64,000 nt of DNA from the NCBI GenBank assembly GCA_951406725.2, contig OX597815.1:77376001-77440000 (forward strand), in the 5' to 3' direction. Shown piece by piece: positions 19,715 to 53,415 of the stretch. The stretch is from Octopus vulgaris (taxonomy: Eukaryota). The notes beneath the pieces are model-generated. The model ran no database searches. It was not told the DNA's origin and saw only the letters and a list, made by a program, of their open reading frames with translations. The position numbers were made by a program, and so were the translations under genes. Each line of letters starts with the position of its first letter. Position 1 is the first letter of the stretch.

Positions 19715-19858
19715 TAACGAGAGGCAAAAAACCTCAAAACTATAGTCCGTGCGTATCATTTAGGTTTATGAGAGGGGATGAATTCCCTTTGTGAATATCA
19801 TAAGGGCACAGAAAGTGTGTCTAAAGCCAGCTGGAGACGATGATCTCCTGGGGCTAAA
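19715..19858 (+). ncRNA. Decayed hammerhead plus three-hairpin module
   Basis: UAACGA-GAGG-CAAAAAA-CCUC-AAAAC-UAUA-GUC (CpG-decayed core), then hairpins AGGGGA/UUCCCU, GGCAC/GUGUC and AGCC..GGAGA/UCUCC..GGCU. Confidence 0.6.
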
Positions 19859-20837
19859 AGCTTCAGTAACACCCACCCTTAGTGGTTAGCCATATTGAGA
19901 TGGCTAGTATACTTTATGATATTATAACCAGAATAGATAAACTGTGTATATATACAGATTTTCAACATTAGAAAGGGACGATTACATAGTTTAATATTCA
20001 TTCCTGTACTTAATTATTTACTTATAAGGTAGTTTCTATAAAGATTGCTCTGGGTATTTACTTATGGAATACTGGGGCGATAAATCATGCTATCTTTATA
20101 TTAGTTATAAGCTAAGAATCAGAACCCCCCCCCCCGGAAAAATAAGTTGTGCACAGATACATACACATATTTAACTATGTGCACACATGCAAATATACAC
20201 AAATATTTGTACTTTATTATGGGTATGTTATAATCAACTCTTCTAGACTTAAGTAACTAGAAAGTTTATATTGCTCTTTAAGAACATTAATAACTTATAA
20301 GAAGTTAATAGGTAAAGATATCAAAATAAGAAAACAAAATAATAAGAAATTATAGAGAATAGTAAGAAAATATATATAACTTATATATAATACTAGCAGG
20401 TAAGTTCACATCATATACAACACTAAAATTAATTTCTCGTGTCTAGGTTCGAGTGCAGCACCTATAAACACTAATTTTGAAAATGTACGGGTGACCCTAT
20501 GTATACATGATACTCTTAGGTCTAATCTATTATTAATTAGGTTGCTCTTGTCCCTATACTTGAAAATTTCATAAGTTTCCATAGAGCACAGCTAGCACCT
20601 GTACCAACTATCTTTGTAAGGCTGTGCTTTCCTTATAATATTCCATTTAAGGCTGAATTTGATTCTGCTTTACTTCCATTCACAAATCTTGGTAGATAAG
20701 GACATACAATTGGCCTTGTGTATATATATGTGCATTATATGTATATGTATGTATATTATAAAGATATATATGTATATTATATATATATATATATATATGT
20801 ATGTATATTATATATACATATATGTATATATGTATAT

Positions 20838-21997: not shown

Positions 21998-22084
21998 GTT
22001 ATATATATGTATATATTTTATATATATTTATATATTTGTTGTGCAAGATTATTTTATGTATAGTCGTGTGTTGAAACAGATATT

Positions 22085-22659
22085 GTTATATTTTGGAATG
22101 GTCATTTTGCCAGTTTAGCCAATAAAAACACACGCACTATATATTTGGTGTTATTTTGCTTCAGTGTTATTTATTTTTTACATTAATCTTAATCTTATTT
22201 CGGCCAGAGTTCTTTCGTCACACTCCTGTGACCACATCAGTGGTCCTTTGTTTTCTTCTTTCTTATTTGTGTCTCTCCTTACTAACCGTCAGCCATTTTG
22301 TATTTCTATTGTATGTCTTCATTTGCGCATGCTTATATCTCTATGTGTGTTTAAGTTTATTTAGTGTGTGTGTGGGGGGATGCCTGTAATATTTGTATCT
22401 TCTGAGATATAAGCATGCGCAATGAAGACATACAATAGAAATACAAAATGGCTGACGGTTAGTAAGGAGAGACACAAATAAGAAAGAAGAAAACAAAGGA
22501 CCACTGATGCAGTCACAGGAGTGTGACGAAAGAACTCTGCCCGAAATAAGATGAAGATTAATGTAAAAAATAAATAACACTGAAGCAAAGTAACACCAAA
22601 TATATAGTGCATGTGTTTTTATTGGCTAAACTGGCAAAATGACCATTCCGAAATATAAC
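22085..22659. repeat. Long inverted repeat (~257-bp arms, 62-bp spacer), Penelope-like inverted pseudo-LTR
   Basis: 22085-22341 is the reverse complement of 22404-22659; each arm has an HHR-like motif; flanked by (TA)n. Confidence 0.92.
22498..22542 (+). ncRNA. Variant hammerhead-like motif (mirror copy 22202-22246 on the minus strand)
   Basis: GGACCA-CUGAUG(CA/UG)-GUCAC-AGGAGU-GUGAC-GAAAG-AA-CUC-UG(G)CC; non-canonical at A9. Confidence 0.55.
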
Positions 22660-23213
22660 TATATTTTATATATATATGTATATATATTTTACGTATATAT
22701 ATATGCATACATACATATACACACATATATATATGTATGCATGTATTTGTGTGTGTCTTTGTGTCTGTGTTTGTTCTCTCACCATCACTTGACAACCTAT
22801 GTTGGTATGTTTATGTCCCCTTAACTTAACAGTTTGACGAAAGAGACCAAGAGAATAAGTACTAAGCTTACAAAGTATAAGTCCTTGGGTCGATTTCTTT
22901 GACTAAAAACACTTTAAGGATGTGCTCCAACATGGCCGCCATCCAATAACTGAAACAAATGAAAGAATGTGTGTGTATGTGTGTGTATAATGCCTCTACT
23001 ATAATTTGTATAATATATATTGTATTTCATAAATATTGTATTTCATAAATATTGTATATACATCCAATAGTAATAGTTACTCAAATATAAATACACATGT
23101 AATAAACTGATACACATATATAAACATATAGCTACATGTGTTTGACAACATACACACACACACATATATATTCATATATGTATGTGAGTGTATGTGTGTG
23201 CATGTATATATAA

Positions 23214-30733: not shown

Positions 30734-30770
<37 letters not shown>

Positions 30771-30772
<2 letters not shown>

Positions 30773-30979
30773 AATAGTTATCACCAAGCTAATATGGCAG
30801 TTCAGAAATATTGGACAAATGCTGCTCTTGATTAGCTCCAAGAGGCCATTGCCTCTAGCTAGCTATGTGACATACGTGTGTCATATAGCTAGCTAGAGGC
30901 AATGGCCTCTTGGAGCTAATCAACAGCAGCAGCATCCTATATTTCTGAACTGCCATATTAGCTTGGTGATAACTATTAA
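30771..30979. repeat. Near-perfect 209-bp palindrome, axis at 30875/30876
   Basis: Arms are reverse complements with no spacer; each contains the GTGTGTC..AGCT..AGAGG/CCTCT..AGCT module. Confidence 0.93.
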
Positions 30980-31262
30980 TATCCAGTACTGCTGCTGTAG
31001 TCTCCTTTAGAGAGACTTAGAAATAATAATATTTATATATATATATATATATATTAATTGAAGTGTACAGTATTATATATCCATTGCAGCTCAGGGTTTA
31101 AAAAAGCTGAAGGACCACTACTATAAGTGTCTGAGAAGGGAATATGTTGATTAAAATCAAAATTGACTGATTCTCCAGTATTTTCTATTGCCCAAAACCA
31201 GGAACTTTTCAGCATCACTTCTTATATACATACATGCATATATACATACATATATATATATA

Positions 31263-31701
31263 TATAGTGGTTGTATACTGTCAACACAACCGCTATTTAG
31301 CCCTAGGAAGCATCGACACTTCCTGTCGGCTTTGACACATTTCCCGTGTTCTTATATTTGCAAAGGGGAGGCAAGCACCCCTGCCAGCTAGGAATAGCAC
31401 CTGGGGACATGTTTCTGGGTCTTGCCCGTCATCAGTCCAGGGTAGTAAGTCCTGCTACCTGAGATGGCTGCAACCTCTTTGCAAATATATAATATTTTCA
31501 GTGAAATTTATTCACTGGTTACCAAAATTAGAAATATTGAATTTCTAAATGTCTCAGAGAGACATGTGCAGTGGTGGGGTGATATAGTGGTTGTATACTG
31601 TCAACACAACATGACAGTCCCATAAAGGGAATCACACCACCGCTATCGCCCCACCACCGCTCATGTCTCTCTGAGACATTCAGAAATTCAATATTTCTAA
31701 T
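31263..31701 (-). mobile_element. Retrozyme/Penelope-pLTR-like unit (320-bp period) with inverted tail
   Basis: 28-bp direct repeat at 31263 and 31583; inverted repeat ~31528-31584 / 31644-31700; internal HHR. Confidence 0.75.
31400..31441 (-). ncRNA. Minimal type I hammerhead ribozyme
   Basis: CCUGG-A-CUGAUGA-CGGG-CAAGA-CCCA-GAAAC-AU-GUC-C-CCAGG. Confidence 0.85.
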
Positions 31702-32431
31702 ATATATATATGTATGCATATATGTTTGTGTGTCTATGTTTGTCCCCCCTCCTATTGCTTGACAACCAATGCTGGTGTGTTCATGTCCCCGTAACTTAGC
31801 AGTTTGGCAAAACAAACTGATAGAATAAGTATTAGGCTTACAAAGAATAAGTCCTAGGGTTGATTTGTTTGAATAAAGGTGGTTCTCCAGCATGACTGCA
31901 GTCAAATGACTGAAACAAATTGAAGAATAAAAGAATATATAAAATCATAATTAACCGATCCTCCTGTATTTTCTTTTACCCAAAGCCAGGAACTTTTCAG
32001 CACCCCCTCATATATATACATATATATCGTCTGACAGATAGCTAATTCATACTATTCATACTAAATCACAGACTTGATTGCTAATAATAGACAAAAGTGT
32101 CAATTCAGCATCATGGGAAATTAATATTAATAACAAGTGTTCAATATAAGATGACAGAAAATTGGAAAGAAAAGAAATTGGAAATGTAGAATATCTTATT
32201 TGATTGGGAATATATTTTTCAATTCACAAAAGGTGCAAGCATCACTGTGTGGTCAAAAATTTTGCTTTCCAGCCATGTGGTTTGGGGTTCAATTCCACCA
32301 CATGTCACCCTTGACAAATGTCTTCTGCTAAAACTCTGAGCCAGCCACATCCTTGGAAGAGAGTATTTGGTAGACAGAAACTGAAAGAAGCATGCTCTCT
32401 CTCGCTCTCTCTCACTGTCTCTTTATATATA

Positions 32432-32940
32432 AATAAGAGTTGTGTGAGAACTGCAATGCTGTATGAGAGTGAGATATGGTGTCTGGGGAAAAGAGAGATG
32501 GTAATTTTGAGAAGGACTGAGAGAGCAATGGTGAGAGAAATGTGTGGGGTGAAGCTGTTTGATAAGAGGACAGAGGATTTGATGGGAATGCTGGAGTTGG
32601 AGGAATTGGTGGAATGGTTGGCAAGGGCAAATGGAGTGAGGTGGTATGGGCATGTATTGAGGAGGGATGAAGAGCATGTTCTGAGGAGGATGATTGCGTT
32701 TGAGGTAAATGGAGCACGAAAGCAAGGTAGACCGAGGAAAAGGTGTAGGGGACAGGTGGAGGAGGAGATTGGGAGAGTTGGTTTGAAAAAGGAGGTTGCC
32801 CAAAACTGGGCAAGATGGTGAGATGGTGAAGTTGGTGTGAGGGCAGTTGCTATGGCATTGAAGTAGATCCGGCTACCCCTGTTAACAGGGACAAAACCCA
32901 AATTTGAAACACTGGATGATGAGGATGATGATAATGATGA
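32432..32940 (+). mobile_element. RTE-clade LINE C-terminal fragment (second family), abutting a SINE-A head
   Basis: SCVRTAMLYESEIW...RRTERAMVREMCGV...VRWYGHVLRRDEEHVLRR...GARKQGRPRKR; (GAT)n tail. Confidence 0.88.
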
Positions 32941-35496: not shown

Positions 35497-36924
35497 ATCA
35501 TCATCATCATCGTTTAACGTCCGCTTTCCGTGCTAGCACGGGTTGGACGGTTTGACCGGGTCTGGGAAGCCAGGGGCCGCTCCAGGCTCCAGTCTGAATC
35601 TGGCAGAGTTTCTACGGCTGGATGCCCTTCCTAACGCCAACCACTCCGTGAGTGGATTGGGTGCTTTTTACGTGCCACCTGCACAGGGGCCGGAGGGTCC
35701 GGCATCGTCACGATCGGTTCGAGCATTTTAACGTGTCGGGAGGTTGGGGTAAGGAGGAACGATGGCAGGAAGGGTTGGTGTAGGTTCCTAAGAAATAAAA
35801 ACGTAGGATATTACGAGGCGGGAGGGTACTAAAAGGGGATGGTCGGATTGAGGCAGTGTCAGGAGGAAGCGTAAGATCGGTGGGCAGTTGATGAGCTATG
35901 GCGCTAGCAGCTTGTCTTTTCACAGTGAAAGCATATGAGGAGAAGGGGTAGTGGAGGGAGGAGGAGGGAGTAGGGCGTACCCGGTGTAGATGAGTAAGGC
36001 GTATCCGGTGTAGATGGTGAGAACAGGGTATACTGGTATTGGTGGTGGGGGTGAGAACAGTGTTCACCGGTATTGGTGGTGGCGGTGAGAACAGTGTTCA
36101 CCGGTATTGGTGGTGGGGGGTGAGAACAGTGTTCATCTGTATTGGTGGTGGGGGTGGGGGGTGGGGGCGGGCGCACCGCCAATGGCGGAAAGAAGGGAAA
36201 AGATGGGTTTTGTAGAGAGAGATAGGAAAGATAAATCAAGTTATGGCGAAGGCTTGAAAGTAGCCTAAAAGGTTAAATTTTCGTAAATTTTCGATGGGTA
36301 AGACGAATCAAGTTATCAATGTATGAATAAACGTAGTAACAACGAATAAAAATAGTAAGATAAATTTTTAAGAACTTGCTGCGGGCATCGACCGGGAGTT
36401 GAAGAAGAAAGTAAGTTGAATTGGGAGTTTAAATTGCAGAATCGTAATGGTAATGGCGATTTTCAAGTTTTAGCATAAGAAGAAGAAGAGGAGGAAAGAC
36501 CGCCAATGGCGGAAAGAAGGGAAAAGATGGGTTTTGTAGAGAGAGAGATAGGAAAGATAAATCAAGTTATGGCGAAGGCTTGAAAGTAGCCTAAAAGGTT
36601 AAATTTTCGTCAATTTTCGATGGGTAAGACGAATCAAGTTATCAATGTATGAATAAACGAAGTAACAACGAATAAAAATAGTAAGATAAATTTTTAAGAA
36701 CTTGCTGCGGGCATCGACCGGGAGTTGAAGAAGAAAGTAAGTTGAATTGGGAGTTTAAATTGCAGAATCGTAATGGTAATGGCGATTTTCAAGTTTTAGC
36801 ATAAGAAGAAGAAGAGGAGGAAAGACCGCCAATGGTGGAAAGAAGGGAAAAGATGGGTTTTGTAGAGAGAGAGATAGGAAAGATAAATCAAGTTATGGCG
36901 AAGGCTTGAAAGTAGCCTAAAAGG

Positions 36925-36926
<2 letters not shown>
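35497..36926 (-). mobile_element. Young non-coding retroelement: tandem 5' monomers, minisatellite and RTE 3' tail
   Basis: CpG-rich; RTE tail at ~35497-35690; ~34-bp minisatellite at ~36017-36150; monomer array at the 5' end. Confidence 0.75.
36176..36926. repeat. ~325-bp tandem repeat, 2.3 near-identical copies
   Basis: CCGCCAATGG(C/T)GGAAAGAAGGG starts near 36176, 36500 and 36826. Confidence 0.95.
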
Positions 36927-36971
<45 letters not shown>

Positions 36972-37472: not shown

Positions 37473-37476
<4 letters not shown>

Positions 37477-37581
37477 TTGTTTTAGCAGTACATATACTAA
37501 AATTGGAACAATAAAGAGAATATTAGCCTGGCCCCTGCACAAGGATGACACACAAATTTATGAAGTGTTTCATATATTTTT
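37473..37581 (+). pseudogene. U6: U6 snRNA pseudogene
   Basis: Colinear with U6 over ~107 nt (CATATACTAAAATTGGAAC..AGAGAA.ATTAGC.TGGCCCCTGC.CAAGGATGACAC.CAAATT..TGAAG.GTT..ATATTTT). ACAGAGA box mutated to AAAGAGA; upstream is (TA)n rather than a promoter. Confidence 0.93.
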
Positions 37582-42289: not shown

Positions 42290-43730
42290 TTGCAGTCTCA
42301 GCGCATGTATGCACATCATCAACCACAGCATGCCCAGCCCTCCATTGACAGCAAATGGATTACTTAACCATCGGAATGCTTCCCTTCCACAGAAAGCAGA
42401 AGAATATGCATTCCAGTTTGTTGATGGTAGAGTCAGGACAAGATATGATGGTCAGACGGTAATTGATGACGGATGCGATGTACGTATTCGCCACCTCCAC
42501 CCAATCTTTTAGAGAGAGCTTCCTCTTAGCCCATTGCTGGGTGAGAGTGGCCACCCTAGTTGTTATCTCGCCCAAGTTCTTCTCTATCTGGAGGTCGAGA
42601 CCGAACCAGACTCTGAGCAATTTAACTGGTCCGTCAGTCCAGCATCTCATGATGAAGACACTGTTGGATAGCATGGGCTTGCTTCTCCAGGTGCCGAAAC
42701 GCAAGCCCACTGACTTTTCCTGGTTAATTTTTGCCCCTGTTACCGCTTTGTATTCTTTTAGTGTCTTGCTGACCAGGTCGATATGTCTGTGGCTCAACAC
42801 TACGACGGTGATGTTGTCTGCATATGCAGACATGCTCCTCCTACATCTCAGCTCTCACAGGATGCCCCTCAGATTGCCAGTTTCCACAGTAGTGGCTCAA
42901 GAGTCAATACGTACAGAAGCAACAAGAGGGGGCATCCTTGACGAACCAAATGTGTGATGTTAAATGGTCTGGACAGATGACCATTTATGCAAACTACCAA
43001 GCGGATGCTGCTGTATAAGGCAGTGATCCAACCGTGGAACACGGGACCAAAACCAGCCACTCTGAGGACAGCCTCCAAGTAGCAATTGTCTACCCTATCA
43101 AAAGCTTTTGCTTGATCCAAATTGATCAGCATCCCACCCATGCCAGGTTCTTTAACTACCCTATCTATGATGTAGTGCATCAGATGGAGGTTGTCATAGA
43201 TACTCCTACCTGGCACGGCACACGTTTGCGCCTTGTCGACCAGTTTCCCGATGAAAAGTGCCAACCTCTCAGCTAACACCTTGGCCAAAATCTTCAAATC
43301 TGTGTTGAGCAGAGTGATGGGCCTGAAGTTATCTATGACGTTCCCTTTGTTTTGGATCTTTCTTTAGCAGTGCCACCACTCCTCACTTTACAGAAATGGG
43401 GATACTCCCGTTTTTGCTGCCAGTTGCAGTAGACAGCTGCGAAGACACCTCTAAATAAGTCTGGCATAAGACAATAAAGTTCGTAGAGCAGACCATCCAA
43501 GCCTGGTGACTTGTCTCCTGTGCAGCTTGCCATCACATCCCGTATGTCCAAGGCTGTGATGGGTCTTTCACAACACTCTGCCTCTCTTTCCAAGAGTCAT
43601 GGCAGGCTATGCAGGCAGGCACTAAAGTCCACTTTGCATTCTGACCCACCAGTTGTCACGAACAGTCAGGTAAAGTATTGTTGAAAGGCCTCACACATCC
43701 TTTCGGGCTCAAGTAATTCATGCCCCTGTT
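42290..43730 (-). mobile_element. Tx1/L1-clade LINE reverse-transcriptase relic
   Basis: KSPGLDGLLYELY, KILAKVLAERL, PGRSIYDN, LDQAKAFDRV, VRQGCPL, AYADNI and GAKINQEKS across frameshifted ORFs. Confidence 0.95.
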
Positions 43731-53000: not shown

Positions 53001-53415
53001 TTCCGTACTACTATTGTTTATATTTCACTCAGAGATTTAATATAACATATCTCTCTCTTTTACAAGATCAGCAACGGTGAGTCGCTAGAAAAGTATATAG
53101 CAATTTGTGAGTGGAATAAGTTTTCACCACTAGCTAGTGATTAACACATGCTGAGGACAGGTGACCATCCAGAAACCCGAGTCCATGTGTATCACGTAAA
53201 ACTAGAGATGGGAGCGATGACCTCCCTTCACAAATACTAAATGGACACAGACTGTGTGTCATTAGTCAGCTGGAGGGGATGTCTTCCTGGGGGCTATAAA
53301 CAACAGTAGCGCTCTCCTGTATAGGGCACCACACTTAGTTAGCAAGTATATTTTACAATTCCGTACTACTACTGTTTATATCTTGCTCAGAGATTTAATA
53401 TATCTTTCTCTTTTA
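53001..53415 (+). mobile_element. Retrozyme/Penelope-pLTR-like unit (358-bp period)
   Basis: ~60-bp direct repeat TTCCGTACTACTA.TGTTTATAT..CTCAGAGATTTAATA at 53001 and 53359 enclosing one HHR and the hairpin module. Confidence 0.78.
53144..53190 (+). ncRNA. Minimal type I hammerhead ribozyme
   Basis: Perfect 7-bp stem I ACACAUG/CAUGUGU; CUGAGGA; short stem II; GAAAC-CCGA-GUC. Confidence 0.88.

Follow-up and report, generated by a model that had tools for sequence, protein, structure and literature searches.

A superfamily of protein-less octopus retrozymes of about 355 nt with a covarying RNA fold and two fixed 3' ends, likely copied in trans by a Penelope-like enzyme

What kind of element places a series of conserved hairpins at a fixed distance behind a hammerhead ribozyme, and what would such hairpins be good for? 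The question is raised by a 64,000-nt stretch of the genome of Octopus vulgaris (the window; contig OX597815.1, positions 77,376,001 to 77,440,000), for which the original prediction proposed that three otherwise diverged loci, and a fourth in part, share a covarying three-hairpin RNA module downstream of the hammerhead cleavage site. By reading and alignment the three loci indeed share hairpin 1, hairpin 2 with its GUGUC end and hairpin 3, and the spacing of the motif is close to that claimed, with TGTGTC beginning 72 (copy A), 67 (copy B) and 69 (copy C) nt after the GUC cut. All four window loci are copies of one superfamily of repeats lacking an open reading frame, with one hammerhead or none apiece. 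Their features, with sites 1 and 2 denoting the two preferred 3' ends treated below, are:

53001..53406, + strand: copy A, 1.14 units of family A (357-nt unit)
53094..53150, + strand: upstream arm of the rod of copy A (sequence, family fold, strand-swap test)
53144-53150, + strand: 5' strand of hammerhead stem I of copy A, at the end of the upstream arm
53151..53183, + strand: type I hammerhead core of copy A (sequence; predicted cut after 53183)
53210..53226, + strand: hairpin 1 of copy A, predicted alternative to the rod
53244..53260, + strand: hairpin 2 of copy A (folding, covariation)
53264..53295, + strand: hairpin 3 of copy A, outer and inner stem (covariation)
53304..53374, + strand: branched helix 4 of copy A, around two or three small hairpins (family fold)
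31264..31646, - strand: copy B, about one unit of family B (354 nt), ending at site 1
31435-31406, - strand: intact hammerhead core of copy B
31644..31701, + strand: inverted arm of copy B, tail only, ending at site 2 (98% over 58 nt)
19717..19916, + strand: copy C, 5'-truncated, family C (355-nt unit), ending at site 1
30875..31038, + strand: arm of copy D ending at site 2, beginning within hairpin 2 and without hammerhead
30768..30876, - strand: inverted arm of copy D ending at site 1, head-to-head with the other D arm

Copy A starts at site 1 and ends at site 2, which leaves the 47-nt tail at both ends, and site 1 recurs within its helix 4 at about 53350-53358; the copy agrees with the family majority at 86% over 407 nt, is decayed and has a best fold other than the rod (z -1.9). 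In the case of copy B, a 33-nt internal deletion lies 3' of hairpin 3, and the linker at 31365-31353 is complementary to the arm at 31489-31477, with a z-score of -4.2 for the rod fold. A hammerhead had been assigned to all three loci, which holds for A and B with their intact cores but not for C, where the truncated and mutated ribozyme is missing its initial core bases together with the 5' strand of stem I, and AAAA stands in place of GAAA. Copy D is a head-to-head palindrome between TA repeats, and family D possesses at the same spacing the hammerhead that the window copy lacks; microRNA matches in Rfam at 30829-30922 were rejected as they arise from this palindrome. Elsewhere in the window, a U6 snRNA copy with several substitutions (37473-37579 +; Rfam 90 bits) directly follows a TA repeat and is probably a retro- or pseudocopy, translations inspected by eye reveal a broken LINE-type reverse transcriptase and C-terminal fragments (42360-43363 - and 32315-32821 +), an inverted repeat at 22080-22664 (244-nt arms, 97% complementary, 97 nt apart) has no match to the superfamily, and a tandem repeat occupies 36175-36927 (period 326, 2.3 copies, 98% match).

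The four window copies retrieved 1823, 1805, 1954 and 2690 candidates from the 2.8-Gb genome, with 40 scored for each, and seeding from new matches yielded 275 distinct arms, of which 263 belong to ten families and 12 in small clusters were excluded from the family set. Units of the ten families measure 349-364 nt at a GC content of 0.40-0.46 (D2 and E rely on single copies each, J on a majority with a short gap), and the seven complete majority units (349-361 nt) are 49-78% identical end to end. The notion of a stand-alone three-hairpin module in otherwise unrelated elements is not supported, as homology spans the whole unit. Upstream of the hammerhead, copies re-enter their own 3' part, which reveals a short unit in partial tandem; tandem units with two or more hammerheads are present at some loci (L210, L273, L146, L293 and L133). 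No open reading frame of at least 120 aa with a reverse transcriptase, nor one that combines reverse transcriptase and GIY-YIG endonuclease, was found at the loci. A profile of the module only, run on 800 kb sampled from the 13 largest contigs, gave 20 matches, and none once the sequence was reversed; the ten units cover 5456 of the 800,000 sampled bases at 16 loci, about 0.7% of the sampled genome, from which roughly 56,000 loci are extrapolated genome-wide. At the loci L206 and L210, copies of family D2 hardly differ, whether compared within one locus or between the two, a likeness pointing to recent activity or duplication. In Rfam, neither a hammerhead nor any other relevant family is among the 150 of 265 window matches listed, nor among the matches of four loci; the output of general repeat finders on the window was dominated by microsatellites.

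The hammerhead is a canonical type I ribozyme with a stem I of 6 bp in all ten families, a helix II of about 4 bp and a helix III that is short and, in nine of ten families, palindromic, a form thought to cleave as a dimer (PMC4209133). These helix sizes match the canonical form of Cervera and de la Pena 2014 and not the minimal hammerheads that had been presumed. The core matches in 28 copies of family A with C3-G8, and six families have C-G at positions 3-8, whereas D and D2 have U-A, a known covariation (PMC4209133), C has U-G (24 of 32 copies) and K has C-A (a mismatch in 7 of 8 copies, e.g. at L288 and L291). As judged from these substitutions in C and K, successful families may cleave weakly or not at all, suggesting that family K has spread with a weak or inactive ribozyme. 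In families A, C, D and E, most full copies have a TGTC anchor 70-73 nt 3' of the cut.

At the sequence level the elements are non-LTR retrozymes, such that what had seemed an unrecognised kind of element falls into a class already described. According to the available text of PMC7229834, non-LTR retrozymes share with the units here the canonical type I hammerhead with a short palindromic helix III, a unit of 150-450 nt with a GC content under 50% and without open reading frame, tandem copies and a self-paired predicted circle; mussel retrozyme units are given as 350-390 nt in the accessible literature. On the other hand, the units here are mostly dispersed, truncated and often head-to-head, whereas non-LTR retrozymes lie in arrays, and the accessible parts of the non-LTR retrozyme papers describe neither a covariation-conserved fold across families nor two mapped reverse transcription start sites. 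Repeat annotation of the octopus lists 190 Penelope-like families, with the word ribozyme absent from the available text (PMC13282606), and the units may already sit in such repeat libraries.

Folded individually as a circle, each family arrives at one common predicted design, in which the hammerhead tips an imperfect rod of about 50 bp and a multiloop at the opposite end contains hairpin 2, hairpin 3, the branched helix 4 and hairpins 5-7. Whole-unit circle folds reach z-scores of -4.0 to -11.8 in the ten families (20-25 shuffles each; -7.4 to -8.7 in the three families later added), and isolated module pieces of 112-118 nt are no stabler than shuffles (z -0.99, 0.07 and -1.84). What had been read as a linker between hairpins 1 and 2 forms the base of the rod, where it pairs into a long helix with an arm some 70 nt upstream of the hammerhead. 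The rod is predicted to prolong stem I and to join both ends of the cut monomer; its strands pair with their own arm at -51 kcal/mol versus -28 kcal/mol with swapped arms, the own arm being best in eight of ten families. Hairpin 1 can be formed in nine of ten families, but its standing has changed: shared as it is by the three loci, it stays unpaired in the predicted folds of circle, cut monomer and precursor and is predicted only with the upstream arm absent (seven of seven families tested). Helix 4 of copy A (53304-53374 +) closes as many as three small hairpins within about 75 nt, a cloverleaf-like topology without tRNA sequence motifs. In the single copy L133:931-1289 +, a more distant eleventh family with a 358-nt unit and two tandem hammerheads, the rod forms (z -3.5), the stems of hairpins 2 and 3 appear compensated by eye and the best fold is without these two hairpins.

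Support for this design comes from covariation. For 45 base pairs in ten families, 441 of 445 cells are paired, a percentage inflated by the choice of the strands of helices 4, 4a and 5 by best pairing and with the inner stem of D2 hairpin 3 excluded from the pair table, and 70 double-sided changes are opposed to 29 one-sided ones. Among the 28 pairs variable on both sides, normalised mutual information is 0.92 for partners versus 0.19 for non-partner stem columns, control columns that share the same tree, and the partner value was reached by 0 of 20,000 permutations; the covariation of hairpins 2 and 3 which the original prediction had claimed is found in these two hairpins by themselves (0.91 versus 0.15). 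Stem I, anchored on the core only, pairs in 60 of 60 cells despite nearly unrelated sequences. In 21 real copies 89.9% of the cells are paired with 149 double changes versus 50 in shuffles, and the paired fraction drops to 30-51% in slid controls. The covariation tracks RNA helices, G-U pairs included, and shows the rod-and-branch fold to be conserved, with the structure itself as predicted by the models. Mean column conservation is highest in the region of the supposed module, the best conserved third of the unit (0.82 versus 0.63-0.75 elsewhere).

The 3' ends of the copies bear on what the fold is for. They fall at two sites about 50 nt apart, 114 arms at site 1 and 111 at site 2 (225 of 263 arms), and 20 of the 263 arms continue into the next unit; queries A, B and C ended at hairpin 3, whereas the D query reached site 2, which biases the end counts of D. 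Site 1 is located 50-69 nt after hairpin 3 and about 165-175 nt after the cut, inside helix 4, and site 2 at 100-129 nt and about 220-235 nt, respectively, just after helices 5-6, and both occupy the same place in the structure in every family with sufficiently deep sampling. The central proposal of a conserved, covarying cis-acting RNA structure at a fixed distance from the hammerhead is supported, and as the two preferred 3' ends occupy homologous positions of the fold, recognition or priming by reverse transcriptase is its best-supported role. For hairpins 2 and 3, which sit 55-125 nt away from the start sites, a role in docking can only be inferred.

The surroundings of the copies carry further marks of insertion. 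Flanks are AT-rich (79% versus 64%), a TA repeat adjoins 82 of 244 ends versus a background of 3.5%, and an inverted arm abuts in 85 of 188 locus-family pairs. After de-duplication, both arms end at a defined site in 53 of the 74 head-to-head loci, and 46 of these 53 have one arm at each site (p 2e-8 versus an even split; 50 of 57 before de-duplication), a rule that copies B and D of the window follow. Direct repeats of 9-16 nt, with those consisting of TA only not scorable, flank 11 of these 46 loci versus 24 of 2070 mismatched flanks (1.2%). The ribozyme cut site is read through by 197 of 259 arms and four begin within 5 nt of it, and 5' ends neither pile up at the cut nor show a clear excess at site 1 or site 2. 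The read-through indicates a circle or an uncut multimer, and not the cut monomer, as template; as the resemblance among tandem units and between inverted arms mostly does not exceed that of separate loci, the circle is not favoured over the multimer.

The copies thus show the full set of Penelope-type marks: partial tandems, an inverted arm truncated at its 5' end, a tail confined to one arm, AT-rich targets and target duplications. The accessible text on Penelope-like elements with their pLTR/tail (PMC11167929, PMC3846280, PMC8557442) describes partial tandems, an inverted 5'-truncated copy and the tail on one inverted arm, along with AT-rich or (TA)n targets, target duplications and two reverse transcription starts downstream of the hammerhead. 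Differences to these elements are the absence of open reading frames, a tail of about 50 nt versus 30-40 nt, the distances of the start sites from the cut as given above, the canonical hammerhead versus the minimal one of endonuclease-containing Penelope-like elements, and the lack of a sequence match to the autonomous elements sampled in the same genome. We infer that a Penelope-like enzyme uses the unit as a substrate in trans, and a protein-less 355-nt retrozyme with a covarying fold that is copied in trans by a Penelope-like reverse transcriptase-endonuclease from two fixed starts in this fold is the likely reading of the superfamily. Non-LTR retrozymes have been proposed as non-autonomous Penelope-like elements before (PMC7229834; bioRxiv 10.64898/2026.07.22.740005; text available in part), in the case of the 2026 preprint by Li, Clavereau and Pollet, as far as its accessible text goes, from co-occurrence and pLTR similarity in 35 genomes with no mollusc among them.

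Candidate helpers exist, as young elements with reverse transcriptase and GIY-YIG domains in open frames of 781 aa are present in the genome. One of them, L300:1245-3587 +, has in addition a further frame upstream, a U3-A8 hammerhead located about 70 nt from its own 3' end, and many copies with 99-100% protein identity. The distance from their own hammerhead to the end is about 70-115 nt in GIY-YIG elements, and an autonomous partner with the fold or sequence of the units in its 3' end was found at 0 of 46 GIY-YIG loci of several families, drawn from 148 of 6136 candidates listed, where module matches are separate insertions only. At least two further hammerhead repeat families without the module (L107, L174, L194, L214, L225, L236, L304 and L315) end about 90-150 nt after the cut, adjoining TA repeats.

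How the copying in trans might proceed is outlined by biochemistry of the anole Poseidon protein, which in purified form cuts and extends both target strands in AT-rich DNA, starts reverse transcription at two internal RNA sites bounding the tail and is predicted to dimerise, with hammerhead mutants not impaired in insertion in vitro (PMC11167929). In the octopus, multimeric transcripts would be cut by the hammerhead, probably as a dimer, and then closed to circles; hairpin 1 may be a transient fold of the newly cut 5' end. The branched domain including hairpins 2 and 3 would dock the enzyme, which would make a staggered cut in AT-rich DNA, and each target strand would prime one cDNA, one per site, giving rise to head-to-head arms with a one-sided tail. 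The more specific proposal that the branched domain docks a reverse transcriptase-endonuclease dimer, that both strands are primed at once from two sites of one RNA and that hairpin 1 is a conserved switch is put forward tentatively and has somewhat less than even chances. In bulk, the anole enzyme uses its start sites equally between strands, a measure that leaves the pairing of sites within a single event untouched (PMC11167929). For Adineta, the available text explains head-to-head arms of Penelope elements by self-priming on an antisense template (PMC3846280); twin internal priming, if true, would account for head-to-head arms and a one-sided tail without such a template, and the switch, if true, would let the cut end swap partners for circularisation.

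A fold with these properties might alternatively have been selected for making and protecting circular RNA, by helping the hammerhead to fold, keeping the cut ends close for ligation and withstanding nucleases, with the reverse transcription starts being accessible A/U-rich stretches and hairpins 2 and 3 not involved in docking, a reading we consider unlikely. The rod extending stem I and joining both ends of the cut monomer would suit it, as would the known retrozyme circles, which are highly self-paired and ligated by RtcB (PMC7229834, available text); however, the rod alone would suffice for this purpose, while hairpins 2 and 3 are the most invariant in sequence (24 of 57 columns), which suggests a partner that reads sequence, and both start sites retain their place in the structure in all deeply sampled families. 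Nor did three cDNA runs, about 6% of each, give evidence for circles. In these portions of the runs, the organism of which is maybe not the species of the window and a contig run of which holds 701 records, 82, 56 and 28 reads matched copy A at 82% likeness, on both strands and with no pile-up at the cut site or ends and no joints; with circles possibly lost from the libraries, this result speaks weakly against abundant expression and says little about circles. Few reads without joints, where retrozymes of coral, mussel and axolotl have abundant circles, count against the preferred reading as well.

That unrelated hammerhead elements acquired a transferable unit of three hairpins, or a second functional RNA such as a ligase or another ribozyme, would agree with this region being the best conserved of the unit and without a match in Rfam, but it is made very improbable by the end-to-end homology of the units, by hairpin 1 and the linker being part of the rod, and by the module not being seen outside the superfamily among the loci examined (800-kb sample and GIY-YIG loci) nor, with 0 matches of the hairpin 2-3 pattern, in metagenome contigs. 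Similarly slim are the prospects of a conserved stretch that works as DNA, either as internal promoter or as endonuclease recognition site: dispersed units need transcription, and the Drosophila Penelope tail is needed for DNA recognition by the endonuclease (cited in PMC11167929, available text), but the covariation follows RNA helices with G-U pairs, and neither a common Pol III A or B box nor a consistent tRNA call was found. An origin from a tRNA-derived SINE or Pol III gene was likewise rejected, with the B box absent in ten families and relaxed ARAGORN calls in three of 11 sequences at unrelated places. Hairpins shared by common descent only, with an unselected structure, would be expected of families that share an ancestor, and isolated module pieces are not unusually stable; this reading is largely refuted by the complete pairing of stem I between nearly unrelated sequences and by partner columns that covary far above non-partner columns of the same tree. 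Hammerhead viroids of the Avsunviroidae are of similar size, with the hammerhead on a rod and a multi-hairpin domain. The units here differ from them by a hammerhead in one polarity only, by genomic DNA copies with marks of retrotransposition and by no evidence of RNA-to-RNA replication.

With respect to what is new in this reading of the superfamily as a trans-copied retrozyme, it is a fold backed by covariation and the use of two start sites in pairs, neither of which is described in the accessible literature covered; supplementary material may show folds of mollusc retrozymes. At stake are the way in which animal retrozymes move and the RNA feature that is read by a Penelope-type enzyme. 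Here a Penelope-type helper is indicated by the insertion marks themselves, the ten families provide an RNA model that rests on covariation and has two start sites mapped onto it, and the genome itself holds a young candidate enzyme of 781 aa, with which binding, priming and paired site use become accessible to in vitro tests.
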